In this document: one piece after another, positions 3,044 to 39,205 of the stretch | How the letters are laid out: every line of letters begins with the position of its first letter | Numbering within the stretch: the stretch's first letter is position 1 | From: Escherichia phage vB_EcoM_SHAK7854 | Reading direction: 5' to 3' (one strand) | Length of the DNA: 39,734 nucleotides | Sequence record: OR594182 | Notes under the pieces: generated by a model | The model's database searches: none | What the model was told of the DNA's origin: nothing | The model's input: the letters and a program-made list of their open reading frames with translations, nothing else | Program-made: the position numbers and the translations under genes

Positions 3044-3072
3044 TTGACTACAGGTCCAGACTATGGCTTAAT
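3044..3072 (+). promoter_or_regulatory. candidate host sigma70 early promoter (T7 A1-like position)
   Basis: TTGACT, 17-nt spacer, CTTAAT; surrounding sequence resembles the T7 A1 region. Confidence 0.4.
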
Positions 3073-3184
3073 AGCTTCCGTCAACACGACACGGCAACAA
3101 CCGGATAGTGAAGACGCCGGGTCATCCCGGTTAAGTAGACAGCCTGATAAGTCATACGAACAACAGGCAGATGACAGAAAGTAG

Positions 3185-3214
3185 TTGACAAGATGTACCG
3201 ACTTAAAGTAGTAT
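3185..3214 (+). promoter_or_regulatory. candidate host sigma70 early promoter (T7 A2/A3-like)
   Basis: TTGACA, 18-nt spacer, TAGTAT, followed by GTACCACAT as at T7 A3. Confidence 0.5.
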
Positions 3215-3397: not shown

Positions 3398-3652
3398 ATG
3401 GACACTATGAAACACTTAAGCACAATCACTAATCGCAATGAAGTATTCGTGAACACTAAAGGTTATGCGTGGATTCAGCTTAAAGAGATGAGAGGAGCGC
3501 GTCACCGTGTGGTAGTTCGCAAGGTATCAAGCAAGCCGTTCAGCAACTACAGCGTAGATACTATGCGTATAGACAACGAGACTTACCTGATAGACTCGCA
3601 GATAACCGTGCGTCCTACAGCGGGCATCTCAGCTCCTTATTTCGCTAACTGA
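3398..3652 (+). CDS. hypothetical early protein (84 aa)
   Basis: first ORF of the early region, downstream of the candidate host promoters; no homology recognised. Confidence 0.55.
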   Translation: MDTMKHLSTITNRNEVFVNTKGYAWIQLKEMRGARHRVVVRKVSSKPFSNYSVDTMRIDNETYLIDSQITVRPTAGISAPYFAN

Positions 3653-3654
3653 GG

Positions 3655-3705
3655 GTGATTAACTACAGGTCGTTAGACTGATAGCGGCCTGACTGATAGT
3701 CACTA
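3655..3705 (+). repeat. early intergenic hairpin element type A, copy 2
   Basis: GTGATTAACTACAGGTCGTTAGACTGATAGCGGCCTGACTGATAGTCACTA; CAGGTC/GGCCTG stem. Confidence 0.55.
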
Positions 3706-3725
3706 GCAACCTAAGAGGATTCATT

Positions 3726-4004
3726 ATGAGACTGAACAAAGCTACAGCAGAAGCCTTTCGCAAGGAGCTTGAATCAAGATTATTGTGTGGAGTGGCGGAA
3801 GGAGCCGCTCGATATAAAGAGAATGGTCTAACGTTCAAGCGCTTTATGTGGGATTGCTATCACGGAGTGGGCCATAAAAAGTCGCAGGAAATAATCACCA
3901 GCAACAATGCGGAAGTGCAAGTGATAGGAGGATACATGGCTAACGTGAAGGATTCACACATAGAGACAATGCTTAAGAATGCACTTAAAGATGTAGCCTA
4001 CTAG
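3726..4004 (+). CDS. hypothetical early protein (92 aa)
   Basis: ORF with AGAGGA RBS 7 nt upstream. Confidence 0.6.
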   Translation: MRLNKATAEAFRKELESRLLCGVAEGAARYKENGLTFKRFMWDCYHGVGHKKSQEIITSNNAEVQVIGGYMANVKDSHIETMLKNALKDVAY

Positions 4005-4054
4005 TGATTAACTACAGGTCGTTAGACTGATAGCGGCCTGACTGATAGTCACTA
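4004..4054 (+). repeat. early intergenic hairpin element type A, copy 3
   Basis: identical to copy 2 over about 50 bp. Confidence 0.55.
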
Positions 4055-4084
4055 ACACATAATTAACTTTGAGAGGATATAACT

Positions 4085-4588
4085 ATGGAACGTAATGCTA
4101 ACGCATACTATGAGCTGCTGGCTGCAACCGTTGAGGCATTTATCGAGCGTATTCAGTACGACCACCTGACTCAAGATGATGACTACAGCGATGCGCTGCA
4201 TGAGGTCGTAGACGGTCAGGTTCCACACTATTACCACGAGATTTTTACGGTGATGGCTGCTGATGGTATAGACCACGAGTTCGAAGACTCTGGGCTGATG
4301 CCTGAAACCAAGGACGTAACGCGTATCCTACAAGCTCGCATCTATGAGGCGCTTTATAACGATGTGTCTAATAGCTTGGATGTAGTCTGGTTTGAGGATG
4401 AAGAGGCAGAAGAAGAGGATGAATATTGGGTAGTTGACGCTAAAACAGGCGCAATAATTGTGCAAGCTGTAGCTCTTGAGGTCGCTACTGCATGTGCCAA
4501 TGTTAACTATGCGGCAGGTCGCCACCTGAAGGTGGAAGACATCAATGATAACGTAGTGTTCGACCCTGCGGCTGAGGACTGCGAGTGA
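4085..4588 (+). CDS. ocr: Ocr-like DNA-mimic anti-restriction protein (T7 gp0.3 homolog) with about 50-aa C-terminal extension
   Basis: [43 protein letters not shown] matches T7 Ocr; acidic tail present; 167 aa versus 117 aa in T7. Confidence 0.85.
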
Positions 4589-4733
4589 TGGTAACTTATG
4601 GCCTCTGCCAGCACCACGTCACTAACGCCCGGCTTATGGTCAAGACCGGGCAGTTAGACCACGATTGGGCTATGCGTCTCTTGAAAGTGGTCTACAGGAG
4701 ACGCAAGCGTATACACGACAGTTTACACGCTAA

Positions 4734-4782
4734 GTGACAGACTACAGGTCATCAATGCTGGTGGCCTGACTGATAGTCATTA
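4734..4782 (+). repeat. early intergenic hairpin element type A, copy 4
   Basis: GTGACAGACTACAGGTCATCAATGCTGGTGGCCTGACTGATAGTCATTAAC. Confidence 0.5.
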
Positions 4783-4800
4783 ACAACTGAGAGGGAAGAT

Positions 4801-5028
4801 ATGAACACAATCACTGGTGCCATAACCAAAGGTTTTCGAGCAATTTTCGGTGAAACGCAAGAAGTATGCACCAATCATAAATTCGTACTTTCTTGCGTAG
4901 CAGGTGACGAGTTTGACGGGTTCGATAAACTGGTGGTTTGCGACCATTGCGGACAAGAGGCTATCCAACACTCAAACGGTAAATTTGAATTAATAGACGA
5001 TAGCCTTACAGAAGGAGACGGCGAGTAA
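4801..5028 (+). CDS. hypothetical early protein (75 aa) with four cysteines and acidic C-terminus
   Basis: GAGAGGGAAG RBS; C-x8-C...C-x2-C spacing suggests a small zinc-binding fold. Confidence 0.55.
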   Translation: MNTITGAITKGFRAIFGETQEVCTNHKFVLSCVAGDEFDGFDKLVVCDHCGQEAIQHSNGKFELIDDSLTEGDGE

Positions 5029-5092
5029 CCTAAATAAGCAGGAGAGAACCAAATCATAGCTTGACCATAACACTGACGTGATGGTACTGAGT

Positions 5093-5135
5093 GATAGACG
5101 AGAGGTCATCGACTGATAGGTGGCCTCAAAGATTA
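5093..5135 (+). repeat. early intergenic hairpin element type A, divergent copy 5
   Basis: GAGGTCATCGACTGATAGGTGGCCTC retains the AGGTC/GGCCT stem. Confidence 0.4.
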
Positions 5136-5160
5136 CCACTTACATTGATAGGAGTTAACT

Positions 5161-5265
5161 ATGAGCACTGCAATCATCTGGACTATCTCAGGCTTCGTAG
5201 CGTGGGGAATGTTTACTCTAGTCTGCAAACTACCGGTCCTTACTCAACTGTTATGGGGCTTATGA
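5161..5265 (+). CDS. hypothetical small hydrophobic peptide (34 aa)
   Basis: GGAG RBS; MSTAIIWTISGFVAWGMFTLVCKLPVLTQLLWGL; stop overlaps next ATG (ATGA). Confidence 0.3.
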   Translation: MSTAIIWTISGFVAWGMFTLVCKLPVLTQLLWGL

Positions 5266-5465
5266 CTATGAGTATCGCACTATTGATAGCCATAGGCTAT
5301 GGACTTATCGCCTACGTGCTGGTGAGAGACATCAACAAGGCACGTAAAGTCTATAAATTCAACTATGTACGTATGGTCCGCTGGACTGTACGTCAACCTA
5401 ACGGACGATTCCTGCGCAATTTAGCGAACGTCTGGGATATAGCAACTCTTGGGAGCAAACTGTAA
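5262..5465 (+). CDS. hypothetical early membrane protein (68 aa)
   Basis: internal Met of ORF-track 5091..5465 chosen as start; N-terminal hydrophobic helix then basic tail. Confidence 0.4.
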   Translation: MTMSIALLIAIGYGLIAYVLVRDINKARKVYKFNYVRMVRWTVRQPNGRFLRNLANVWDIATLGSKL

Positions 5466-5791
5466 TGAACAAGTCATACGGGATTAATCTGGTACACTCT
5501 ATGGACGCAGAAATGAACATGTTAAGCCTACTGGCTACCGGGTATCGTCACGGAACGTCAAGTCACACCGCACGTCAACAGCAGGAGCGGGACCGTGTAC
5601 TACAGGCGCGACTCCGGGCAGAGGGCCATAAGTCCGAACTGATGTGTCTGGCGTATGGCGGACGACCGATCACTGACGATGGTAAACTTCTGGTATCAGG
5701 CTGGAAGGCGATAGACCAACGGTCAACCATCAAGCACACGACTCATGGTGACTTCAGTCATCTTCACGCTAACCCACTGATATGCAAGTGA
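5465..5791 (+). CDS. hypothetical early protein (108 aa)
   Basis: TAATG coupling to upstream ORF; occupies the T7 0.7 position but is far too short to be the kinase. Confidence 0.5.
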   Translation: MNKSYGINLVHSMDAEMNMLSLLATGYRHGTSSHTARQQQERDRVLQARLRAEGHKSELMCLAYGGRPITDDGKLLVSGWKAIDQRSTIKHTTHGDFSHLHANPLICK

Positions 5792-5796
5792 TTCTG

Positions 5797-5819
5797 ACTT
5801 AACTATCACTATAGGACTC
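5797..5819 (+). promoter_or_regulatory. phage RNAP promoter immediately upstream of the RNAP gene
   Basis: CTTAACTATCACTATAGGACTCA; +1 GGA. Confidence 0.6.
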
Positions 5820-5888
5820 AAGGTCTAAGACTCCAAGTGAAAGACCAAAGAGACTTTAAGTGAAAGACTAATAACAAGGACTTTAAGT

Positions 5889-8570
5889 ATGAGCGTCATC
5901 TCTATTGACAAACACGACTTCTCTGATGTGTCGAACGCCATTGAGCCGTTTAACCTGCTGGCTGACCACTACGGGCAAGACCTTGCAGTCAAACAGCTTC
6001 AGCTTGAGCATGAGGCCTACACTGAAGGTGAGCGACGTTTCATCAAGAACCTTGAGCGTCAGACCGAGCGAGGGGAACTGGCAGACAATCAGGTCGCCAA
6101 GCCTTTGATGCAGACTCTGGTTCCTAAGATTGCGCAAGCCGTCAAGGAGTGGCACGAAGGTCCAGACGGGAAGCTGTCAACCTCACGTCCGAGCGTAGCG
6201 TTCACCATGTTAAGCACTGAAGAGAAGGCCGTCAAGGACCGCTCTCTTCGCATCTCCTGCGAGTCTGCTGCGGTTATCATACTGAAGGTCATCCTCTCCA
6301 AGCTGGTCAAGCCTGAAGGTATACCGATTACACCGATGGCCTCCGCGATAGGTCGCACACTTGAGGATGAAATCCGATTCGGTCGCATTCGTGACAAGGA
6401 GAAGGAGCACTTCAAGAAGGCGATAGCTGATAACCTGAACAAGAGAGCCGGGGCATCATACAAGAAAGCCTACATGCAAGCGGTCGAGACATCCATGCTG
6501 GAGCAAGGCCAACTAGAAGATGCGTGGGGAACTTGGAGTCCGACCGAGGCTGTCCACGTTGGAATCAAGATGCTGGAGATTGTCATACAGTCAACACAAC
6601 TGGTCGAGCTTAAGCGTTACGGTGCTGGCAATGCAGCGGCTGACGTTGAGATGGTCCACCTGTCAGACTTCTGGGTCAAGAAGATGGCACAACGAGGATT
6701 CAGCCTTGCGGGTATCGCCCCAGTCTACCAGCCTTGCGTCGTTCCACCTAAGCCGTGGACTGGTGTCGTAGGTGGTGGGTACTGGGCCAAAGGTCGCAGA
6801 CCGTTACCATTGATTCGCTTAGGGTCTAAGTCTGCGGTAGCACGTTATGAAGACGTATACATGCCTGAAGTCTATGACGCTGTGAATATCATCCAGAATA
6901 CACCTTGGAAAGTGAACAAGAAGGTATTGGACGTGGTGAACAAGGTCGAGAAGCTGAACAACACGCCTATTGATGACATCCCTCAGATGGAACCGCTGAA
7001 GCCTGAGGACTATGCGGGTGAGACTGAAGAAGAACTCAAGGCATGGAAGAAGGCTGCTGCTGGTATCTATCGCCGCGAGAAGGCCAGACAGTCACGAAGA
7101 TTGTCACTGAGCTTTATCGTCAACCAAGCGAACAAGTTCTCTCAGTTCAAGGCCATCTGGTTCCCGTATAACATGGACTGGCGCGGTCGCGTCTACGCTG
7201 TGCCGATGTTCAACCCTCAGGGTAACGACATGCAAAAGGGTCTTCTGACTCTGGCAGTCGGTAAGCCTATTGGTGCTGATGGTTTCAAATGGCTGAAGGT
7301 CCACGGTGCAAACTGCGCGGGTGTCGATAAAGTCACCTTCGAGGAGCGTATCAAGTGGGTGGAAGATAACCACGACAACATCATGGCTGCTGCCAAGGCA
7401 CCGATGGATAGCATTGAGTGGTGGGGCAAGTTAGACTCTCCGTTCTGCTTCCTAGCGTTCTGCTTCGAGTATGCTGGCGTAATGCACCACGGCTTGTCTT
7501 ACTCCTGCTCGCTGCCGATAGCGTTCGATGGGTCCTGCTCTGGGATTCAGCACTTCAGCGCTATGCTTCGCGACCACATCGGTGGACATGCAGTAAACCT
7601 GACGCCATCCGGTAAGGTCCAAGACATCTACCGCATCGTGTCTGACCGCATTGAGGAGGAGCTTAAAGTCCTACTGGTTAACGGTACGGACAACGAGATG
7701 GTAACTCACGAGGACAAGAAAACTGGTGAGATTACCGAGCGTCTCAAGCTGGGGACACGAGAGCTTGCCCGTCAGTGGCTGACCTACGGTATGTCACGAA
7801 AGGTCACTAAGCGTTCGGTCATGACTCTGGCCTACGGGTCGAAAGAGTACGGCTTCGCAGACCAAGTTTACGAGGACATCGTGATGCCAGCGATTGACTC
7901 AGGGTCTGGCGCTATGTTCACTGAACCAAGCCAAGCATCTCGCTTCATGGCTAAGATGATTTGGGAAGCTGTGAGTGTGACCGTAGTTGCTGCGGTTGAC
8001 GCGATGAAATGGCTTCAGGGTGCTGCCAAGCTGCTTGCTGCTGAAGTGAAGGACAAGAAGACTGGAGAAATCCTGAAGCCTTGTCTTCCGGTACACTGGG
8101 TCACACCTGATGGTTTCCCTGTCTGGCAGGAATACCGCAAGAAGGACACCACTCGTCTGAACCTGATGTTCTTAGGGTCATTCAACCTTCAGCCTACCGT
8201 CAACAAAGGCACGAAGAAAGAGCTGGACAAGCACAAGCAGGAGTCAGGCATTAGCCCGAACTTCGTCCACTCACAAGATGGTAGCCACCTCCGCAAGACT
8301 GTAGTCCACACTCACCGAAAGTATGGCGTGATGTCATTCGCAGTGATTCACGATAGCTTCGGGACCATCCCGGCTGACGCTGAGTATCTGTTCCGTGGAG
8401 TCCGTGAGACGATGGTAGAGACTTACCGCGATAACGATGTGCTGCTTGACTTCTACGAGCAGTTTGAATACCAGCTTCATGAAAGTCAGCGCGACAAGTT
8501 GCCTGAGCTTCCGAAGAAAGGTAAACTAAATATCGAAGACATCTTGTCTTCAGACTTTGCATTCGCTTAA
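5889..8570 (+). CDS. single-subunit DNA-directed RNA polymerase (T7 gp1 family)
   Basis: 893 aa, collinear with T7 RNAP (PFNLLADHYG, WFPYNMDWRGRVYAV, SPFCFLAFCFEYAG, AFDGSCSGIQHFSAMLRD, HDSFGTIPADA, C-terminal FAFA). Confidence 0.97.
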   Translation: MSVISIDKHDFSDVSNAIEPFNLLADHYGQDLAVKQLQLEHEAYTEGERRFIKNLERQTERGELADNQVAKPLMQTLVPKIAQAVKEWHEGPDGKLSTSRPSVAFTMLSTEEKAVKDRSLRISCESAAVIILKVILSKLVKPEGIPITPMASAIGRTLEDEIRFGRIRDKEKEHFKKAIADNLNKRAGASYKKAYMQAVETSMLEQGQLEDAWGTWSPTEAVHVGIKMLEIVIQSTQLVELKRYGAGNAAADVEMVHLSDFWVKKMAQRGFSLAGIAPVYQPCVVPPKPWTGVVGGGYWAKGRRPLPLIRLGSKSAVARYEDVYMPEVYDAVNIIQNTPWKVNKKVLDVVNKVEKLNNTPIDDIPQMEPLKPEDYAGETEEELKAWKKAAAGIYRREKARQSRRLSLSFIVNQANKFSQFKAIWFPYNMDWRGRVYAVPMFNPQGNDMQKGLLTLAVGKPIGADGFKWLKVHGANCAGVDKVTFEERIKWVEDNHDNIMAAAKAPMDSIEWWGKLDSPFCFLAFCFEYAGVMHHGLSYSCSLPIAFDGSCSGIQHFSAMLRDHIGGHAVNLTPSGKVQDIYRIVSDRIEEELKVLLVNGTDNEMVTHEDKKTGEITERLKLGTRELARQWLTYGMSRKVTKRSVMTLAYGSKEYGFADQVYEDIVMPAIDSGSGAMFTEPSQASRFMAKMIWEAVSVTVVAAVDAMKWLQGAAKLLAAEVKDKKTGEILKPCLPVHWVTPDGFPVWQEYRKKDTTRLNLMFLGSFNLQPTVNKGTKKELDKHKQESGISPNFVHSQDGSHLRKTVVHTHRKYGVMSFAVIHDSFGTIPADAEYLFRGVRETMVETYRDNDVLLDFYEQFEYQLHESQRDKLPELPKKGKLNIEDILSSDFAFA

Positions 8571-8585: not shown

Positions 8586-8816
8586 ATGTCAATGAAACTT
8601 GTAGCACACAACAGGACATACAACGATGGGTCGGGACGTTGCCATGTAGAGCTGACTTATAGGGATTTAGTCATTCTCCGAGACAGATTACAAGAGGGTG
8701 TGACTGGGTGGATTCAACCTAACGAGTACAACCTTATAGCTTCGATTGATGAAGTGCTTAACGCGTGGATGGAAGACGAGCGCACTCAGTATCCATCATT
8801 CCCTATGATTAAATAA
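8586..8816 (+). CDS. hypothetical protein (76 aa), no T7 counterpart between gene 1 and 1.1
   Basis: CAGGAGGAG RBS. Confidence 0.55.
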   Translation: MSMKLVAHNRTYNDGSGRCHVELTYRDLVILRDRLQEGVTGWIQPNEYNLIASIDEVLNAWMEDERTQYPSFPMIK

Positions 8817-8826
8817 GGAGAGAGTT

Positions 8827-9042
8827 ATGAAATTTGCACACAAGCAGTCTGGCGTTAAGGGCGGGACTCAAATCGTGACCGTAACAGAACACAACGGCAA
8901 GGGTCTGGTGAAGACCACGGTCATCCCTACAGAGATGTCAAAGCAGCTTAACGTCCCATTCAAGACACTCGTCTATCTTGTGGAATCCAGCCACGAGAAA
9001 TACCTGAAAGACGCAGTGTCCAAGCTGGAGCAGGCCAAATGA
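8827..9042 (+). CDS. hypothetical protein (71 aa), no T7 counterpart
   Basis: AAGGAGAG RBS. Confidence 0.55.
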   Translation: MKFAHKQSGVKGGTQIVTVTEHNGKGLVKTTVIPTEMSKQLNVPFKTLVYLVESSHEKYLKDAVSKLEQAK

Positions 9043-9116
9043 CAGACATACAGTTACTGGCCCTGTGGCTGGGAGCACTCGCAGTATTCACTTTAATCCA
9101 ACGCAGAAGAGGTTAA
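9039..9116 (+). CDS. hypothetical hydrophobic peptide (25 aa)
   Basis: ATGA overlap with upstream stop; MTDIQLLALWLGALAVFTLIQRRRG. Confidence 0.25.
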   Translation: MTDIQLLALWLGALAVFTLIQRRRG

Positions 9117-9117
9117 C

Positions 9118-9140
9118 CCTAAACTATCACTATAGGATTA
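9118..9140 (+). promoter_or_regulatory. phage RNAP promoter (phi1.1-like)
   Basis: CCTAAACTATCACTATAGGATTA. Confidence 0.7.
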
Positions 9141-9182
9141 GACTCAAGGTCATGACTCAAAGTCGTGGCCTTCATGATTAAC
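9138..9182 (+). repeat. hairpin element type B (candidate RNase III site, R1.1-like)
   Basis: TTAGACTCAAGGTCATGACT...AGTCGTGGCCTT imperfect 12-bp stem. Confidence 0.5.
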
Positions 9183-9213
9183 CCTAAATAAACACTACTG
9201 GAGATTTAACCGT

Positions 9214-9393
9214 ATGTATCAGAACACTATCAACTTCGAGCGCATCCGTGAACGTCAGCAGACTGAAGGTTACATCCCTAAGGGCCGCAAGCTGAACAAG
9301 ACTAAACGTGGAGGAGGTATCAAAGGTGCTTTCCGTAACGCTGAAGGTAAAGACTCTATGGTTAACCAAGAGAAATACTTCATAGGAGCGTAA
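9214..9393 (+). CDS. gp1.1-like small basic protein (59 aa)
   Basis: KGRKLNKTKR shared with T7 gp1.1; below ORF-track cutoff. Confidence 0.6.
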   Translation: MYQNTINFERIRERQQTEGYIPKGRKLNKTKRGGGIKGAFRNAEGKDSMVNQEKYFIGA

Positions 9394-9396
9394 GCC

Positions 9397-9648
9397 ATGA
9401 GTAAACGTTGGTTATTCGACGCATCCACGAGCCAGTGGTCAGCGTTAGGCCGGACTCACCGCGAGATGAGTGAGGCAGGACTTGATGTCCTAATGGATTA
9501 CTCGCCGTGCCACGGAAAAACTCTGGTCAGAGTAATTGAAGCAGATGGTGGGAGGCTTCTGGTCTCCAGAGAATTTACCGAATATGAAATATTTAGCTGT
9601 GAGCAATGGTGCTTACAACAATTGAACGATTATAGGAGCTGGAAATAA
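9397..9648 (+). CDS. gp1.2-like protein (T7 gp1.2 is a dGTPase inhibitor)
   Basis: position and size (83 aa) match T7 gp1.2; C-terminal DYRSWK similar to T7 KDWK end. Confidence 0.5.
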   Translation: MSKRWLFDASTSQWSALGRTHREMSEAGLDVLMDYSPCHGKTLVRVIEADGGRLLVSREFTEYEIFSCEQWCLQQLNDYRSWK

Positions 9649-10712
9649 TGACTACGACTATTAAAACTAACCCGCACCGCGCTGTAGATTACTCTGAGTC
9701 AGGAGTTACGAAAGCACTGGCAGCAGCCGGGTCGCTGGAAGCTGAAGTGAAGTATGATGGTGTGCGGCTGAACCTACCGGTCTTCCCTACTGGTGAGACT
9801 CAATGGTTGAGCCGTGAGTCCAAGCCTCTTCCAGCCCTTGAGTGGCTATCAGTCCGGACCAACATCGACAACATCGTGGAAGACCAACAGATGGCTAGTG
9901 ACTGGCGATGGTTCCTGAAGCAGGCTGGATACGAAGGCACTGGCCTGATGATTGACGGTGAGGTCATGGTAAAGGGTGTAGACTTCAACACATCCTCAGG
10001 TCTTATACGAACGAAGTACGTCAAGTCTAAGAACTACGACTTCCACGATGGTGACTGGGACCTGAAGTCAAAGACTATACCATTCAGACTGGACCCTGAG
10101 CACATCAAGGTAATCGTCTACGGTGTCATCGACCTCAACGTCATCACCGACCCGAAAGCCGAAGGTCCTATCCATAGCGTCACACGCCTGAAGGCGGAAG
10201 CTATCGTCCCTCTCCTCCAGAAATACTTCCCGGAAATCGACTGGGTTCTGTCTGAGTCACACACGGTCTATGACCTTGAGTCGCTCAACTCCCTGTACGA
10301 ACAGAAGCGTCTGGAAGGACATGAGGGTCTGGTAGTCAAGGACCCGCTGGGTAAATATAAGCGTGGCAAGAAGTCTGGCATGTGGAAAATGAAGCCTGAG
10401 GAGACCATAGACGGGACCGTGTGTGGCCTCGTGTGGGGTACTCCTGGTAAGGCCAACGAAGGTAAGGTGATTGGCTTCGAGGTGCTGCTTGAGGATGGCA
10501 TGGTGGTTAACGCCTGTGGTCTGTCTGAAGAACAGAAGGACGAGTTTACGGAAGCCTGTAACACTGATACATATATTCTCGGTGGAATCAATCCGTACGA
10601 AGGATGGCAGTGTGAAGTACTCTTCATGGAGCGGTTCCCAGATGGATCCCTTCGTCACCCTAGCTTCAAGTGCTGGCGTGGAACGGAAGATAACCCAACC
10701 GTTAAGAGTTAA
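9648..10712 (+). CDS. ATP-dependent DNA ligase (T7 gp1.3 family)
   Basis: IKTNP, adenylation motif KYDGVR, EGHEGLVVKDP, KRGKKSGMWKMKPE, SLRHPSF. Confidence 0.93.
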   Translation: MTTTIKTNPHRAVDYSESGVTKALAAAGSLEAEVKYDGVRLNLPVFPTGETQWLSRESKPLPALEWLSVRTNIDNIVEDQQMASDWRWFLKQAGYEGTGLMIDGEVMVKGVDFNTSSGLIRTKYVKSKNYDFHDGDWDLKSKTIPFRLDPEHIKVIVYGVIDLNVITDPKAEGPIHSVTRLKAEAIVPLLQKYFPEIDWVLSESHTVYDLESLNSLYEQKRLEGHEGLVVKDPLGKYKRGKKSGMWKMKPEETIDGTVCGLVWGTPGKANEGKVIGFEVLLEDGMVVNACGLSEEQKDEFTEACNTDTYILGGINPYEGWQCEVLFMERFPDGSLRHPSFKCWRGTEDNPTVKS

Positions 10713-10722
10713 CTAAACGTCA

Positions 10723-10760
10723 ACCCAGTGGTCTTCGGACTGCTGGGTTTCTTTGCTTTG
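10723..10760 (+). terminator. rho-independent early terminator (TE-like) after ligase
   Basis: CCCAGTGG-TCTTCGGA-CTGCTGGG stem-loop followed by TTTCTTTGCTTTG. Confidence 0.65.
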
Positions 10761-10795: not shown

Positions 10796-10818
10796 CCTAA
10801 GCTATCACTATAGGACAA
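10796..10818 (+). promoter_or_regulatory. phage RNAP promoter
   Basis: CCTAAGCTATCACTATAGGACAA. Confidence 0.65.
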
Positions 10819-11715: not shown

Positions 11716-11814
11716 ATGGAAAAGCCGAGTGAGTGGTGCGAGCGTAAATTTGAGGAGACAGGTAACGTCGATTACCTTCAGCTCTACAACTTATGGAAGG
11801 AGCGTGGTCTATGA
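11716..11814 (+). CDS. hypothetical small protein (32 aa; gene 1.8 position)
   Basis: GAGGTG RBS; ATGA overlap with the following gene. Confidence 0.35.
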
Positions 11815-11969
11815 CTGACGTAGAGAAGAAGTACATCGTGGAGCTTGAGGGTCGCATTCAGTCCTTCGAGGTTCCGGTGTACGCAAAGTCTCTTGAAGAG
11901 GCTACCCTGAAGTCCCAAGAGTATGAGGACGCTGGGTTTGTGGTCGGACGGATTCGTCCTGAGACCTAA
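11811..11969 (+). CDS. Gp2-like inhibitor of host RNA polymerase (52 aa)
   Basis: [14 protein letters not shown]...[10 protein letters not shown] resembles T7 Gp2 SFEVPIYAETLDEA...AGFEVTRVRP. Confidence 0.75.
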
Positions 11970-11987
11970 ACTATCACTGTAGGACAG
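11965..11987 (+). promoter_or_regulatory. phage RNAP promoter, variant (TGTAGG)
   Basis: CCTAAACTATCACTGTAGGACAG; stop codon of the Gp2-like gene lies within it. Confidence 0.55.
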
Positions 11988-12027: not shown

Positions 12028-12729
12028 ATGGCTAAAGAGCAACTGAAGACTTTCACCACTCCGGTAGCTGGTATTGTTGAGCCTTACGCATGGCTTAACA
12101 AAGCAGACACCAAGTTCAACGAGCGTGGTGAACACAAAGTCAACCTTACATTCGACCTGAGCAACCCGAAGGTCCGTAAGATGATTGATGTCTTACAGAA
12201 GATTCACGACGATGCGTATGCGAAAGCACTTGCAGACCACGAGAAGAACCCACCTCAGGTTCAGCGTGGCAAGAAGCCTATTGAACCACGAGAAGGCGAC
12301 ATGCCGTGGATTGAGAATGGTGACGGTACTGTTACCCTGAAGTTTAAATGCTTTGCGTCTTACCTGAAGGATGGTAAGTCAGAGCCTATCGTATTACGGT
12401 TCTACGACACCGATGCTAAGTTAATCCGTGACGTCCCGAATATTGGCGCTGGCTCAAAGCTGAAGGTCAAGTTTAAAGTCCTGCCGTTCAAGTGGAACGC
12501 TGCGACTGGTGCAAGCGTTAAGCTACAGCTTGAGTCCTGCCTTCTGGTAGAACTGAAGGAATGGAAAGGTGATGGTGCTGGTGGCGATGGTGGCTGGGGT
12601 GATGATGAAGACCTTGGTACTGGTTACAAAGCGTCAACCGTTGGTGACTTCGGTGGTGATGACTTTGGGTCTGACGATGGTTACGAAGGTGGTGACGACT
12701 CCAACTCTGGTGGCGATTACGACTTCTAA
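12028..12729 (+). CDS. single-stranded DNA-binding protein (T7 gp2.5 family)
   Basis: 233 aa; Gly/Asp-rich acidic C-terminus ending DYDF as in gp2.5. Confidence 0.9.
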   Translation: MAKEQLKTFTTPVAGIVEPYAWLNKADTKFNERGEHKVNLTFDLSNPKVRKMIDVLQKIHDDAYAKALADHEKNPPQVQRGKKPIEPREGDMPWIENGDGTVTLKFKCFASYLKDGKSEPIVLRFYDTDAKLIRDVPNIGAGSKLKVKFKVLPFKWNAATGASVKLQLESCLLVELKEWKGDGAGGDGGWGDDEDLGTGYKASTVGDFGGDDFGSDDGYEGGDDSNSGGDYDF

Positions 12730-13181: not shown

Positions 13182-13672
13182 TGAGCAAGAAGTTTAAACT
13201 GTTAGTAGATGCGCATGGCTGGCCTAGTGGGACTATAGTTACCAAGTGTGAGAATGACCCCGTACCAGATTCAAGAATGACCCTAGTTGAGTGCCAGACT
13301 CCAGGCGCATACAAACATGGGTCTAACGGCTGCAATACTCAGCCTGAGGGTATGTGGGGAGCATGGGTCCTTAATTGGAAACTTGAGGAAATCAAGCCGG
13401 AAGAGAAACTCACTGGTGTCCAAACCACTCAAGTCCTGCCAGCTTCGAGCGTACCGCCTGTGACTTTGAAGCGTGAAGTCCTGACCATCGACAAGATTGG
13501 TGTAGGCCAGACGTTCATCGTCCATGGAAAGCCTGAAGAAGTTTACGTGAAGATTAGCAACTCACACGTCTTCAACCATAAGCATCTCCAGATGCACACC
13601 ACGGACGCACAACGCTTCACCCAGCACCTGAATCTGGTTGTCGTAGAATTGGTGGTGTGCAATGGTAAGTAA
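13181..13672 (+). CDS. hypothetical protein (about 163 aa) inserted between gp3 and gp3.5
   Basis: ATG overlaps gp3 stop (TGATG) and the ORF overlaps the gp3.5 start; no T7 counterpart. Confidence 0.55.
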   Translation: MSKKFKLLVDAHGWPSGTIVTKCENDPVPDSRMTLVECQTPGAYKHGSNGCNTQPEGMWGAWVLNWKLEEIKPEEKLTGVQTTQVLPASSVPPVTLKREVLTIDKIGVGQTFIVHGKPEEVYVKISNSHVFNHKHLQMHTTDAQRFTQHLNLVVVELVVCNGK

Positions 13673-14120
13673 GGTACAGTTCAATCCACGGTCCAGGACC
13701 GACGCTATCTTCGTTCACTGTTCGGCTACCAAGCCAGAGATGGACATCGGGGTAGAGACCATCCGTATGTGGCACAAGCAGCAAGGCTGGCTGGACGTAG
13801 GCTACCACTTTATCATCAAGCGCGATGGTACTGTGGAAGAGGGACGCCCGGTCAATGTCGTAGGGTCACACGTTAAGGACTGGAACTCACGGTCTGTAGG
13901 CGTCTGCCTTGTAGGTGGAATTGACGCTAAGGGCAAGTTTGAAGCTAACTTCACTCCGGCCCAGATGAACTCCCTGCGCAACAAGCTGGCTGACCTGAAG
14001 GTCCTGTATCCTCAGGCAGAAATCAAAGCACACCATGACGTAGCACCTAAGGCGTGTCCAAGTTTTGACTTGCAACGCTGGCTGTCTACCAATGAACTGG
14101 TCACTTCCGACCGTGGTTAA
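13662..14120 (+). CDS. N-acetylmuramoyl-L-alanine amidase / lysozyme (T7 gp3.5 family)
   Basis: DAIFVHCSATKP, QGWLDVGYHFIIKRDGTVEEGR, GVCLVGGIDAKGKF, APKACPSFDL, NELVTSDRG. Confidence 0.93.
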   Translation: MVSKVQFNPRSRTDAIFVHCSATKPEMDIGVETIRMWHKQQGWLDVGYHFIIKRDGTVEEGRPVNVVGSHVKDWNSRSVGVCLVGGIDAKGKFEANFTPAQMNSLRNKLADLKVLYPQAEIKAHHDVAPKACPSFDLQRWLSTNELVTSDRG

Positions 14121-14144: not shown

Positions 14145-14360
14145 ATGATTAAACTTATCGAATTTCTTGGTCGTCTGGTGGTGCGTGGTTATCGTCGTGC
14201 TGCGGTACTGGAACGAAAGGTAGAAAAGAAGACTGCGGACGGTGCGGCTGATGCTGCTGCTCTGGCTGACAAGCTGACCATCGCGTCACTGGAAGCTGGC
14301 ATGAAGGCGCGTCAGGCTGACACCAAAGCCGACCAGTTGGCTCAGTTCTTCAAAGCCTAA
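14145..14360 (+). CDS. hypothetical protein (71 aa; gene 3.8 position)
   Basis: AGGGAGAA RBS; Ala/Lys-rich, probably helical. Confidence 0.5.
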   Translation: MIKLIEFLGRLVVRGYRRAAVLERKVEKKTADGAADAAALADKLTIASLEAGMKARQADTKADQLAQFFKA

Positions 14361-14378
14361 ACTATCACCTTAGGGATG
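14356..14378 (+). promoter_or_regulatory. phage RNAP promoter, variant (CCTTAGGG)
   Basis: CCTAAACTATCACCTTAGGGATG; overlaps upstream stop; followed by GGGAC...GTCCC hairpin. Confidence 0.5.
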
Positions 14379-14425: not shown

Positions 14426-16129
<1,704 letters not shown>

Positions 16130-16305: not shown

Positions 16306-16357
16306 GTCTAGACTCAAGGTCATTCACATAGAGTGGCCTTTATGATTAGACTAAACG
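16306..16357 (+). repeat. hairpin element type B (candidate RNase III site)
   Basis: GTCTAGACTCAAGGTCAT...GTGGCCTTTATGATTAGAC. Confidence 0.5.
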
Positions 16358-20019: not shown

Positions 20020-20042
20020 ACTAAACTATCACTATAGGGACT
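20020..20042 (+). promoter_or_regulatory. phage RNAP promoter (phi6.5-like)
   Basis: ACTAAACTATCACTATAGGGACT. Confidence 0.75.
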
Positions 20043-21294: not shown

Positions 21295-22863
21295 ATGGCT
21301 GAACGTGAAGGGTTCGCTGCTGAAGGAGCCAAAGCGGTCTATGACCGACTGAAGAACGGTAGACAGCCATATGAGACACGCGCTCAGAACTGTGCTGCTG
21401 TCACTATCCCGTCACTGTTTCCTAAGGAGTCCGACAACTCGTCTACTGAGTACACCACTCCGTGGCAAGCTGTGGGTGCTCGCTGCTTGAACAACTTGGC
21501 TGCGAAGCTGATGTTGGCATTATTCCCTCAGTCACCGTGGATGCGACTTACAGTCTCCGAATATGAGGCAAAGACCTTGAGTCAGGACTCAGAGGCGGCT
21601 GCTCGTGTTGATGAAGGGCTGGCTATGGTCGAGCGTGTGTTGATGGCTTACATGGAGACTAACAGTTTCCGTGTCCCATTATTCGAGGCGCTGAAGCAGC
21701 TTATCGTCTCAGGTAACTGCCTGCTCTACATCCCTCCTCCAGAACAAGGAACCTACAGTCCTATGCGAATGTACCGCTTAGTGTCCTACGTTGTTCAACG
21801 TGATGCTTTCGGTAACATCTTACAGATTGTGACTCTCGACAAGGTAGCGTTTAGTGCTCTACCGGAAGACGTGAAGTCTCAACTCAACGCAGACGACTAT
21901 GAGCCTGACACCGAGCTTGAAGTCTATACGCACATCTACCGTCAGGACGACGAGTATCTGCGCTACGAGGAAGTGGAAGGCATTGAGGTGACAGGTACCG
22001 ATGGTTCCTACCCGCTGACTGCATGTCCATACATCCCGGTACGAATGGTTCGACTGGATGGTGAAGACTACGGTCGTTCTTACTGCGAGGAGTATCTGGG
22101 CGACCTCAACTCGCTGGAGACGATTACAGAAGCTATCACAAAAATGGCTAAGGTAGCCTCCAAGGTGGTGGGCCTCGTTAACCCGAACGGTATCACGCAG
22201 CCTAGACGTCTGAACAAGGCGGCTACAGGTGAGTTCGTGGCTGGTCGAGTTGAGGACATCAACTTCCTGCAACTGACGAAAGGTCAGGACTTTACGATTG
22301 CTAAGTCGGTGGCTGACGCTATCGAGCAACGTTTAGGCTGGGCCTTCCTTCTTAATAGTGCTGTTCAGCGTAATGCCGAGCGTGTCACTGCTGAAGAGAT
22401 TCGTTATGTTGCTGGCGAACTGGAGGCGACCTTAGGTGGCGTGTACTCAGTACAGTCACAAGAGCTTCAGTTGCCTATCGTCCGTGTGCTGATGAACCAA
22501 CTTCAGTCTGCTGGCATGATTCCAGACCTTCCGAAAGAAGCGGTAGAGCCTACGGTCTCCACTGGTCTGGAAGCGTTAGGTCGTGGTCAGGACTTAGAGA
22601 AGCTGACTCAGGCAGTCAACATGATGACCGGGCTACAGCCTCTACAACAGGACCCAGACATTAACTTGCCTACACTGAAGCTGCGACTGCTGAATGCCTT
22701 AGGCATTGACACCGCTGGTCTGCTACTGACTCAGGACGAGAAGTTGCAACGCATGGCTGAACAATCCGCTCAAGGAGCTGTGGTCAATGGTGCGTCTGCT
22801 GCTGGTGCTAACATGGGTGCTGCTGTGGGTCAGGGAGCTGGTGAGGACATGGCTCAAGCCTAA
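21295..22863 (+). CDS. portal (head-tail connector) protein (T7 gp8 family)
   Basis: YETRAQNCA, TIPSLFPK, TPWQAVGAR, YVVQRDAFGN, LRYEEVEG, GRSYCEEYLGDL, RVTAEEIRYVA. Confidence 0.95.
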   Translation: MAEREGFAAEGAKAVYDRLKNGRQPYETRAQNCAAVTIPSLFPKESDNSSTEYTTPWQAVGARCLNNLAAKLMLALFPQSPWMRLTVSEYEAKTLSQDSEAAARVDEGLAMVERVLMAYMETNSFRVPLFEALKQLIVSGNCLLYIPPPEQGTYSPMRMYRLVSYVVQRDAFGNILQIVTLDKVAFSALPEDVKSQLNADDYEPDTELEVYTHIYRQDDEYLRYEEVEGIEVTGTDGSYPLTACPYIPVRMVRLDGEDYGRSYCEEYLGDLNSLETITEAITKMAKVASKVVGLVNPNGITQPRRLNKAATGEFVAGRVEDINFLQLTKGQDFTIAKSVADAIEQRLGWAFLLNSAVQRNAERVTAEEIRYVAGELEATLGGVYSVQSQELQLPIVRVLMNQLQSAGMIPDLPKEAVEPTVSTGLEALGRGQDLEKLTQAVNMMTGLQPLQQDPDINLPTLKLRLLNALGIDTAGLLLTQDEKLQRMAEQSAQGAVVNGASAAGANMGAAVGQGAGEDMAQA

Positions 22864-22881
22864 ACTATCACTATAGGAACA
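22859..22881 (+). promoter_or_regulatory. phage RNAP promoter (phi9-like)
   Basis: CCTAAACTATCACTATAGGAACA; overlaps portal stop codon. Confidence 0.7.
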
Positions 22882-23838: not shown

Positions 23839-23861
23839 ACTAAACTATCACTATAGGGAGA
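23839..23861 (+). promoter_or_regulatory. phage RNAP promoter (phi10-like, strongest consensus match)
   Basis: ACTAAACTATCACTATAGGGAGA; +1..+6 GGGAGA as in T7 class III. Confidence 0.8.
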
Positions 23862-28611: not shown

Positions 28612-28656
28612 GGGCCTATAGATTTACCTTAACTATCACTATAGGGACTATAGGCC
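28612..28656 (+). other. 10-bp perfect inverted repeat (GGGCCTATAG / CTATAGGCCC) enclosing the promoter before gene 13
   Basis: arms at 28612..28621 and 28647..28656. Confidence 0.5.
28627..28649 (+). promoter_or_regulatory. phage RNAP promoter (phi13-like)
   Basis: CCTTAACTATCACTATAGGGACT. Confidence 0.7.
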
Positions 28657-35000: not shown

Positions 35001-35917
35001 GCCTGACTGGTAGTAAGCGTAAGTTCGATGACCGCTGGCTGAAGACCGCTGGTATATCTGACGAGCAGTGGAGTGGAATTAAGTCCCTAATCCGTGAGTC
35101 AGTGACTCGTGGGCCAGACGGGAAGTACACCATCAAGGATAAGAAGGCATTCAGTCAGGACCCAAGGGCTATGGACCTGTGGCGTATGGGTGACACCATC
35201 GCTGACGAGACGTTACTCCGGCCTCATAAGCTGTCAAACATGGACGCCAAGGCTTATGGTCCTCTCGCTAAGACTGTCCTTCAGTTTAAGAACTTCGTCA
35301 TCAAGTCTATCAATGGGAGAACCATGCGAACCTTCTATAACGCCACGAAGAACAACAGAGCGATTGACGCTGCACTGTCGACCGTGATGTCTATGGGTCT
35401 GGCTGGTATCTACTACATGGCTCAGGCGCATGTCAAGGCTTATGCTATGCAGGATGGTCGAGACCGTGACTACCTTAAGCAAGCTCTGGACCCAACGATG
35501 ATTGGCTATGCGGCCCTGTCCCGTAGTTCACATCTTGGTGGCCCACTTGGGGTAGCTAACATTCTGGGAGGCATCGCTGGATATGAGGACACTAAGATGC
35601 TCCGTTCGTCTATCCTACCTCGTTCTCCTACAGAGAAGCCTGAGCGTGCCATCGCGTATGGTGCAGCTACAAGTGACCCTGTGATGAATGTTGTTGGTAA
35701 CTTCTTGGAGCAGGTTCCAGCTTTCGGATATGCTGCTAACGTTGGCGCTTCGGCTTACAACTTGGCTGGCTACCTCAAGGCTGATACTCGTGTCAACGAG
35801 CGTGACTACATGACCGGGATGTATAATACGTTCCGTGAACTGGTTCCGAACGACCCCATTACCCAGAAGCTGCTGCTTGGAACGTTTGAGGAGCAAGGCA
35901 TCCACATCAAGGACTAA
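32030..35917 (+). CDS. internal virion protein C/D (T7 gp16 family) with divergent N-terminal domain
   Basis: 1295 aa; from about residue 200 collinear with T7 gp16 (RWNSHIWT-like, GGSPQNL, VRSPTGMQSGASGK, TYVPHVY, RPEVK, AYGISH, ENNSFLEARNLFDSD, RRVNGDIAIM, FFAKNAYMG, NGTTNYLLDA, RAMDLWR, NNRAIDAALS, DPTMIGYAALSRSS, LVPNDP). Confidence 0.93.
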   Translation: MATRGIRNNNPGNIRVSKDQWEGMTGDDGAFVTFDSPESGVRALGKNLLSYGRQGYDSIEKIINRWAPPNENDTKAYIDSVVAATGIPATQSLDLSDPDTLSSLAQAISFHETGSRYDPEVYQKGVARALNGISPKTPPVSANVFDALTEGLKAKPKVALGENLPTAAGLNIEGQAPESPNESFGEMFYKATGETMQEQEDRSTWFGFGAATEAEVKNSMVGVAIRAGQTEDSLDVIGDVFNPTRWNNHKWSREELDQIRNAGVLPQYYGVITGGSPQNLTELINLALENQKLDQEKAKAGTGAQLAAGVIGAGVDPLTYVPIAGQVGKGGKLVNKMFTVAAQSGALAGASEIARTSVAGGDAHVAEAILGGALFGGGMTAIADGLGRALGRNTNEFAGPATRLEARETARNVDGQDLSRLPIQEGEQTFSHQGVKFADVPNEPGSVRLEDGSILIGENPLNPKTRQVFDEVIEPERAAAGVNLGGLTEIGLKLLRSENPEIRGVAADLVRSPTGMQSGASGKIGTTASDVFERLRAVDHRFYNDIDDAVTEALKDPYFQTAFWRDSGAFRQDIYQRVSMAIEDGSGNLKAELTPGELKVYDLLKNQFDAKREMMENPAMFGRPDAQSIFPGSRFKGTYVPHVYSKQMKELYIKELGSPEALQEAIKKSWLTSYASRPEVKKRVDEALLEADPTLTPEGLAAAVDKYANDKAYGISHTEQFERSSVMEENINGLVGLENNSFLEARNLFDSDMSIVLPNGQTFSVNNLREWDMDKIVPAYNRRVNGDIAIMAGTGKTTKEMKDLVETMMNKAGDDGKLKGEVSTLRDTLKILTGRARRDGADDAAFATVMRTMTDLSFFAKNAYMGVQNLTEIGGMLARGNVRALLHGVPMFRDLAFRNKKVGASEIKDLHNVIFGKELDDSIRPSKQDVIDRLRSYSDLSRGTATALGTAKYYTGELVVRSPFTKVLNGTTNYLLDAGRQGFLSDIVEHSLTGSKRKFDDRWLKTAGISDEQWSGIKSLIRESVTRGPDGKYTIKDKKAFSQDPRAMDLWRMGDTIADETLLRPHKLSNMDAKAYGPLAKTVLQFKNFVIKSINGRTMRTFYNATKNNRAIDAALSTVMSMGLAGIYYMAQAHVKAYAMQDGRDRDYLKQALDPTMIGYAALSRSSHLGGPLGVANILGGIAGYEDTKMLRSSILPRSPTEKPERAIAYGAATSDPVMNVVGNFLEQVPAFGYAANVGASAYNLAGYLKADTRVNERDYMTGMYNTFRELVPNDPITQKLLLGTFEEQGIHIKD

Positions 35918-35935
35918 ACTATCACTATAGGAAAC
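35913..35935 (+). promoter_or_regulatory. phage RNAP promoter (phi17-like)
   Basis: ACTAAACTATCACTATAGGAAAC; overlaps gp16 stop codon. Confidence 0.7.
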
Positions 35936-39155: not shown

Positions 39156-39205
39156 TGTTAGACTCAAGGTCATTACTGTATGTAGTGGCCTTTATGGTTA
39201 ACACT
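39156..39205 (+). repeat. hairpin element type B (candidate RNase III site, R18.5-like)
   Basis: GTGTTAGACTCAAGGTCATTACTGTATGTAGTGGCCTTTATGGTTAACAC. Confidence 0.5.

Follow-up and report, generated by a model that had tools for sequence, protein, structure and literature searches.

The textbook model of T7 has the polymerase gene transcribed by the host enzyme only, and T7 kinetic models rest on that wiring. A sequence-only reading of Escherichia phage vB_EcoM_SHAK7854 (record OR594182) placed a consensus phage-type promoter directly before the phage RNA polymerase gene (gene 1), and the locus thus raises the question of whether this polymerase transcribes its own gene. The analysis covered the whole stretch of 39,734 nt, here called the window. 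The site, its family of copies, the strict conservation of its position, the covariation with the polymerase specificity loop and the absence of terminators were computed directly.

The window comprises the complete genome, in circularly permuted form, of a K1F-like podovirus of the genus Kayfunavirus (Studiervirinae), with all long ORFs on the + strand. Its segment 5300-6500 shares 99.5% identity with Escherichia phage vB_EcoP-22664UKE3-2 and is matched by ~ 220 Kayfunavirus records. A 183-bp terminal repeat is doubled in tandem (2426-2608 and 2609-2791, the copies agreeing at 182/183 positions), which puts the physical left end at ~ 2609 and indicates a permuted assembly of the concatemer-junction style. 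An array of short repeats of the type CCTACAGTC is found immediately inward of the left terminal repeat (2820-2930); it resembles the short repeat arrays adjoining the T7 ends, and the record of Citrobacter phage CR8 has (acctacagtcaac)3 annotated in the corresponding position. The inner edge of the same terminal repeat carries on the - strand a partial promoter-like string, TATCACTATA (2790-2803), pointing outward and continuing with C instead of GG; since GG at +1/+2 is absent, it is probably non-functional. Gene 1 (5889-8570, + strand) encodes a T7-type single-subunit RNA polymerase of 893 aa (Pfam RNA_pol PF00940, 1.5e-106; RPOL_N PF14700), 99.7% identical to the RNAP of Vec13.

The putative promoter of gene 1 occupies positions 5797-5819 of the + strand, in the intergenic segment that separates gene 1 from an ORF with its end at 5791. 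Its full 23 bp, ACTTAACTATCACTATAGGACTC, extend from -17 to +6 and are composed of ACTTAACTATCACTATA followed by GGACTC. Alignment with T7-type promoters sets +1 at G5814, and the gene 1 ATG at 5889 leaves a leader of 75 nt (5814-5888, + strand) in the transcript that the phage RNAP would make. The T7-group promoter core, CACTATAGG, is found at 5807-5815 (-7 to +2). The 19-mer picked out by the sequence-only reading, CTTAACTATCACTATAGGA, is present at 5798-5816 with no mismatches, and the distance of about 70 nt given there is correct, as 70 nt separate the end of the 23-mer from the ATG. The site differs from the promoter consensus of the genome itself by one mismatch, and identical 23-mers occur in K1F and PE3-1.

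Ten matches to the 19-mer with up to three mismatches were detected in the window, all on the + strand and each standing ahead of an ORF, against 0.01 expected in dinucleotide shuffles. The claim of a consensus phage-type promoter before the RNAP gene is thereby confirmed. The copy at 1826-1848 (+1 at 1843) follows the terminase gene in a phiOR-like position before the terminal repeat. Next downstream of gene 1 is the copy at 9118-9140 (+1 at 9135), which is followed by an RNase III-type hairpin (9147-9171, z -4.22), and then come the copies at 10796-10818 (+1 at 10813) and 11965-11987 (+1 at 11982). The latter lies ahead of an ORF at 12028-12729, and its counterpart in CR44b precedes gene 2.5. 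According to the PE3-1 record, the copies at 20020-20042 (+1 at 20037) and 22859-22881 (+1 at 22876) are in the phi6.5 and phi9 positions, respectively. The major capsid gene is preceded by the copy at 23839-23861 (+1 at 23856, start GGGAGA), and the remaining two are located at 28627-28649 (+1 at 28644) and 35913-35935 (+1 at 35930). A weaker, promoter-like eleventh site with three mismatches (14356-14378, + strand, +1 at 14373) stands ahead of a 566-aa ORF at 14429.

The start GGA noted earlier for the gene 1 site is real, while its interpretation as a deviation from GGG does not hold, since six of the ten sites start with GGA, including all four early and middle ones (5814, 9135, 10813 and 11982). 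GGG is present at 1843, 20037, 23856 and 28644. Because its start is GGACTC and not the GGGAGA of the capsid promoter, the gene 1 promoter may be a weak, class II-like one of modest strength, a start type that it has in common with the other promoters of the middle region.

To compare related phages, 80 RNAP-encoding loci were taken from IMG/VR, a promoter consensus was derived for each phage on its own, and the copies were located relative to gene 1. A gene 1 promoter was observed in 21/21 loci with an RNAP identity of at least 79% to that of the window, with +1 at -75 to -102, and the same site is present in K1F. All 220 phage records matching the segment 5780-5900 cover at least 80% of it, and records with an RNAP at least 80% identical are about as many.

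The promoter-specificity loop of the window polymerase, TRLNLMFLGSFNLQPT (residues 755-770, codons at 8151-8198, + strand), differs in some of these relatives. The RNAPs of Cronobacter phage GW1 (L036) and of locus L016 are 88% identical to that of the window, and their loop is TRLDLMFLGTFRLQPT, T3-like in having N changed to D at the position of T7 N748 and N changed to R at that of R756. Every promoter in GW1 and L016 has AAACCCTCACTATAGG instead of AAACTATCACTATAGG (consensus type AAACCCTCAC), and the gene 1 copy, 75-76 nt upstream, is switched likewise, in flanks that are still recognisably homologous. GW1 and L016 represent a clean natural case of a polymerase and its promoters changing together on a K1F-like backbone. 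A third loop is found in CR8 (genus Caroctavirus, RNAP identity 79%), in which all promoters carry GAAGGTACACTATAGG (type GAAGGTACAC), among them a perfect copy that precedes gene 1 by 102 nt. Bases -12 to -8 and the loop match in this comparison as ACTAT with RLN..FNLQ (K1F type), ACCCT with RLD..FRLQ (GW1) and AGGTA with the loop of CR8, and the gene 1 site follows in all three types. Covariation of the loop, the genome-wide consensus and the gene 1 site is therefore strong evidence for a working cognate promoter, and since the site tracks the polymerase through two specificity changes, it appears to be selected as a promoter for that polymerase. Judging from these comparisons, the element at 5797-5819 is very probably a working cognate promoter for the phage's own RNAP. 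Pairs of K1F RNAP and PK1F are functional and orthogonal in vivo, the natural promoter copy used being unspecified in the accessible portions of the two sources (PMC3458549, PMC12218169). A literature search for 5'-end mapping or in vitro transcription of the gene 1 site gave no report for any Kayfunavirus.

The contrast with T7 drawn by the sequence-only reading is borne out on a wider sample. In none of 57 loci of T7-, T3-, K11- and KP32-like phages (53 analysable by consensus and four inspected by hand) does a promoter occur in the 400 nt ahead of gene 1; one of the four contains only 160 nt of upstream sequence. The promoter is also absent before gene 1 in Berlinvirus pEa_SNUABM_57, Elunavirus L1, the Serratia Teseptimavirus Pila and SP6. 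In a sample of other genera drawn from the phage collection, copies of the phage's own consensus were found to start 101-129 nt before gene 1 in Ghunavirus PPPL-1 (L090, 4556-4579) and in Pifdecavirus Roomu-1 (L091, 3849-3872) and 22PfluR64PP (L092, 4663-4686). As these Pseudomonas phages carry such a copy, polymerase self-transcription would not be limited to K1F-like phages. On the sequence comparison, the arrangement is patchy within Studiervirinae, predicted in Kayfunavirus, Caroctavirus, Ghunavirus and Pifdecavirus, and not in T7, T3, K11/KP32, Berlinvirus, Elunavirus and SP6. The idea that the promoter makes up for a lost 0.7 kinase was rejected, because CR8 keeps a 0.7 homologue and yet has the promoter.

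We consider it likely that the 23-mer functions as a promoter of the K1F-type RNAP, with transcripts starting at G5814, and that gene 1 is in this way self-transcribed. Promoter, leader, Shine-Dalgarno sequence (AAGGA, 5876-5880) and gene 1 are collinear, the layout of an autogene with a cognate upstream promoter. No terminator-like site was detected on the + strand between 1700 and 9300. The first strong one downstream of gene 1 is an intrinsic terminator after the ligase gene (about 10722-10759, + strand), equivalent to TE, with a 12-bp stem, six GC pairs and a T tract. Since the promoter is on the same strand as gene 1, 75 nt ahead of it and without a terminator between, positive autoregulation would be expected from the layout.

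In the proposed course of events, host RNAP would start at early sigma-70 promoters near the left end (~ 3044-3214) and read through the early genes, yielding the first gene 1 mRNA; this early unit would end at the TE-equivalent terminator. We know of no phage RNAP packaged in T7-group virions. The best sigma-70-like candidate for an early promoter is TTGACA-18-TAGTAT (3185-3214, + strand, 10/12 matches). Sites of this kind number 10 in the early region against 8.4 in shuffles, without enrichment, so the sigma-70 trigger is proposed mainly by analogy with T7 A1-A3. Newly made polymerase would then initiate at 5814 and transcribe its own gene together with downstream genes up to and past TE. 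The positive feedback loop could persist after host RNAP is shut off by gp2, for which a gp2-like inhibitor is encoded at 11793-11969 (+ strand, PF16857, 3e-20), and from then on gene 1 could be fed by the phage promoter alone. Later damping could come from competition by late promoters and from the homologue of gp3.5 lysozyme, a predicted amidase (13662-14120, + strand, PF01510, 2.4e-16), by analogy with T7 lysozyme, which inhibits T7 RNAP. From this arrangement we infer in vivo initiation, feedback strength and the brakes on the loop.

The alternative that survives best accepts a real phage promoter and supposes it to be kept for other reasons, with self-transcription of gene 1 as a by-product. 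The promoter drives every gene downstream, so that selection may act on this role and not on autoregulation; the roles considered were those of a first middle-class promoter, of polymerase-driven genome entry, and of a transcription-primed replication start like T7 phi1.1A/B. Transcripts from 5814 must indeed run into the downstream genes, as no terminator intervenes before 10722. Moreover, Kayfunavirus has no promoter directly after gene 1, the next one being ~ 3.0-3.5 kb from the gene start, and T7/K11-like phages have one at +2677 to +2748 relative to the start of gene 1. On the other hand, the site abuts gene 1 in four genera that differ in their downstream content. For genome entry the gain would be small, because gene 1 is already inside the cell before any phage RNAP exists. 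A replication start is not suggested by base composition either. The leader has a GC content of 0.37, against 0.35-0.48 after the other promoters, and is not among the 60-nt windows of lowest GC, so it is not unusually AT-rich and an origin-type AT tract was rejected. Gene 1 would be transcribed in any case, and the difference concerns the purpose assigned to the promoter. We regard this alternative as rather unlikely compared with a promoter retained for self-transcription.

The leader between the promoter and gene 1 has features of its own and is conserved throughout Kayfunavirus. It contains a weak hairpin near the 5' end (5817-5852) and three copies of ACTYYAAGT (5830-5838, 5853-5861 and 5880-5888) in tandem units of 23 and 27 nt. 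This motif is a near-palindrome, and its third copy adjoins the gene 1 ATG. Exact GACTTTAAGT occurs in the window only in the gene 1 leader (5828-5888). The otherwise diverged leader of CR8 (L083, 3378-3459) also repeats GACTTTAAGT- and CTTAAG-type motifs. The leader motif may resemble the ACTTTAAG stretch of the translational enhancer in the T7 gene 10 leader.

These features allow a tentative extension of the self-transcription model, in which gene 1 mRNA exists in two isoforms with different fates and the leader repeats and hairpin form a control element that tunes the feedback loop or tames it. Host read-through RNA includes bases -8 to +1 and can form an extended hairpin with 5857-5866. 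Transcripts made by the phage RNAP start inside this extended hairpin, and may retain its inner part, 5817-5852. Control may be exerted by RNase III processing or through a translational operator or enhancer. We give this extension only a small chance of being correct; if true, the phage would possess a regulated natural autogene in place of the T7 R1 site. Shuffled sequences fold as well as the leader hairpin (z +0.43 and -0.35), and segments 5814-5900, 5792-5888, 5700-5900 and 5810-5870 are not more stable than shuffles.

It could also be supposed that the element is conserved as RNA, contributing the 5' arm of a hairpin for RNase III-type processing of early transcripts made by the host, equivalent to T7 R1. 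In T7, the corresponding gap, the last one ahead of gene 1, is the junction of genes 0.7 and 1 and contains RNase III site R1, and the majority of folded T7-, T3-, K11- and KP32-like representatives have a strong canonical R1 hairpin in exactly this gap. In read-through RNA 5806-5866, promoter bases -8 to +6 can pair with downstream CTTTAAGTGA, and the Ro45lw sublineage, with T changed to A at -2 and a 1-nt deletion in the 3' arm, would form a perfect outer stem of 9 bp, as judged by eye. However, the extended fold is no better than shuffles (z -0.79), is inconsistently predicted across relatives and differs from the structure predicted for the Ro45lw group. The bases changed in GW1 and CR8 are promoter specificity bases, which change with the RNAP loop rather than with a pairing partner. 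On these grounds an R1-like RNase III site in or after the promoter was rejected as the main explanation.

Canonical hairpins of the type AGGTCAT...GTGGCCT do exist elsewhere in the window (3667-3690, 4016-4039, 4746-4767, 5103-5126, 9147-9171, 16317-16339 and 39167-39191). They often have TAGACTCA ahead and look like T7-type RNase III sites; those tested, at 9147, 16317 and 39167, gave z from -2.5 to -4.2. The gene 1 leader opens with the 5' half-motif GACTCAAGGTC, which is enriched tenfold in the window (15 vs 1.5). No canonical hairpin was found between 5103 and gene 1, and no stable interrupted hairpin of ~ 20 bp of this type at the leader. An Rfam scan of the whole window at gathering thresholds returned zero matches. 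The gap before gene 1 holds a strong hairpin and no promoter in most of the folded T7-, T3-, K11- and KP32-like representatives, whereas in the window it holds a promoter and only a weak hairpin, and the closest hairpin of the canonical RNase III type lies farther upstream, at 5103, in contrast to R1 within the T7 gap. Conservation of the element as RNA is very unlikely. The hairpin at 5103-5126 lies near the start of a listed ORF of 124 aa (5091-5465), whose halves match two different PHROG families. The nearest GenBank relative has two smaller ORFs annotated across this segment, and the long ORF is probably not a real gene.

A host sigma-70 promoter is what the GenBank record of PE3-1 implies, where the identical 23-mer (KJ748011, 2874-2896) carries the note 'host RNAP promoter'. 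This assignment is extremely unlikely to be right and was rejected. A sigma-70 scan found no such promoter at 5797-5819; the 23-mer belongs to the phage promoter family, its siblings in the PE3-1 record being phi6.5 and phi9, and it covaries with the phage RNAP. The label very likely reflects reasoning transferred by mistake from T7. A copy without function, there by chance or in decay, is hardly credible and is effectively refuted by the comparative data, with 0.01 matches expected and the site kept in 21/21 loci through compensated specificity switches.

The element read here as a cognate phage promoter is already known from public annotation, and the records disagree about it. It is a 'predicted promoter' in CR44b (HG818823, 1814-1836, gene 1 at 1906) and in CR8 (HG818824, 3356-3378, gene 1 at 3460), while in K1F (2475-2497) it is unannotated, with no promoter features in the 7 kb of the record examined. 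The elements in CR44b, PE3-1, CR8 and K1F show no structural difference from that of the window; identity over 5780-5900 amounts to 100% for PE3-1, 99.2% for CR44b and 97.5% for K1F. In the Ro45lw sublineage the gene 1 site is a CACTAAAGG variant, and the published promoter table of Ro45lw omits it (PMC9866566). A paper from 2026 includes in its list a CTWAACTATCACTATAGG repeat at the 3' terminus of SPD_007, the RNAP gene being SPD_008, without comment on its position (PMC13298934). Nothing is said about the gene 1 site in the genome papers of CR8/CR44b, the SH phages, Hafnia phage Ca and Ro45lw. No discussion of autoregulation in Kayfunavirus was found in the literature covered, which did not include the K1F genome paper.

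Comparable arrangements have been described in other phages. Pseudomonas phage LUZ100 has, as does the window, a phage-specific promoter directly upstream of the RNAP gene (phi1). In the feedback model proposed together with its mapped start, the first RNAP comes from host read-through and then amplifies itself (PMC10134795). LUZ100 is a distant, temperate-like relative; its phi1 was mapped by ONT-cappable-seq, and a MarR-like protein is its proposed repressor (PMC10134795). No repressor or lysogeny module was detected in the window among the early ORFs (3398-5788) or the ORFs closely following gene 1 (8586-10709). Autoregulation is suggested by the authors for Vibrio phage phiA318, in which a predicted cognate promoter, phi-A8, lies ahead of the RNAP gene (PMC4099482); this promoter is also upstream of a kinase gene, belongs to a different phage group and is a prediction only.

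Engineered versions of the same wiring exist for T7, and tight repression is needed for the stability of the T7 autogene. In that construct a cognate promoter drives the RNAP, which is autocatalytic once triggered (Dubendorff & Studier 1991, cited in PMC1500874). In T7 mutants carrying gene 1 behind a T7 promoter, the fitness gain predicted by the model was not reached (Endy et al. 2000, cited in PMC3737178). For displaced-gene-1 strains, 'auto-amplification feedback' is said to have complicated fitness predictions, and growth was slower than modelled (PMC3737178). Because these mutants fell short of the predicted fitness, the benefit of feedback is not self-evident. The T7 autogene and the displaced-gene-1 strains are artificial constructs, while the arrangement in the window is natural and stable across a whole genus.

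Since several records mark the site and the idea of autoregulation is already known for other phages, the discovery is a modest one. The additions of the present analysis are the covariation evidence, the map of clades and the remark on inconsistent annotation. In practical terms, a site that is inconsistently or wrongly annotated in public records should properly be labelled a phage promoter. Kayfunavirus phages are used in phage therapy work, and the genus is the source of the orthogonal K1F polymerase. Self-transcription of gene 1 would follow directly from such a promoter and may have physiological weight. A widely isolated genus would then be wired unlike T7, and Caroctavirus, Ghunavirus and Pifdecavirus likewise, with a self-amplifying polymerase gene retained across changes of promoter specificity. 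Following the T7 gene-displacement experiments, the group would offer a natural test case of whether positive feedback of the polymerase speeds the phage life cycle.
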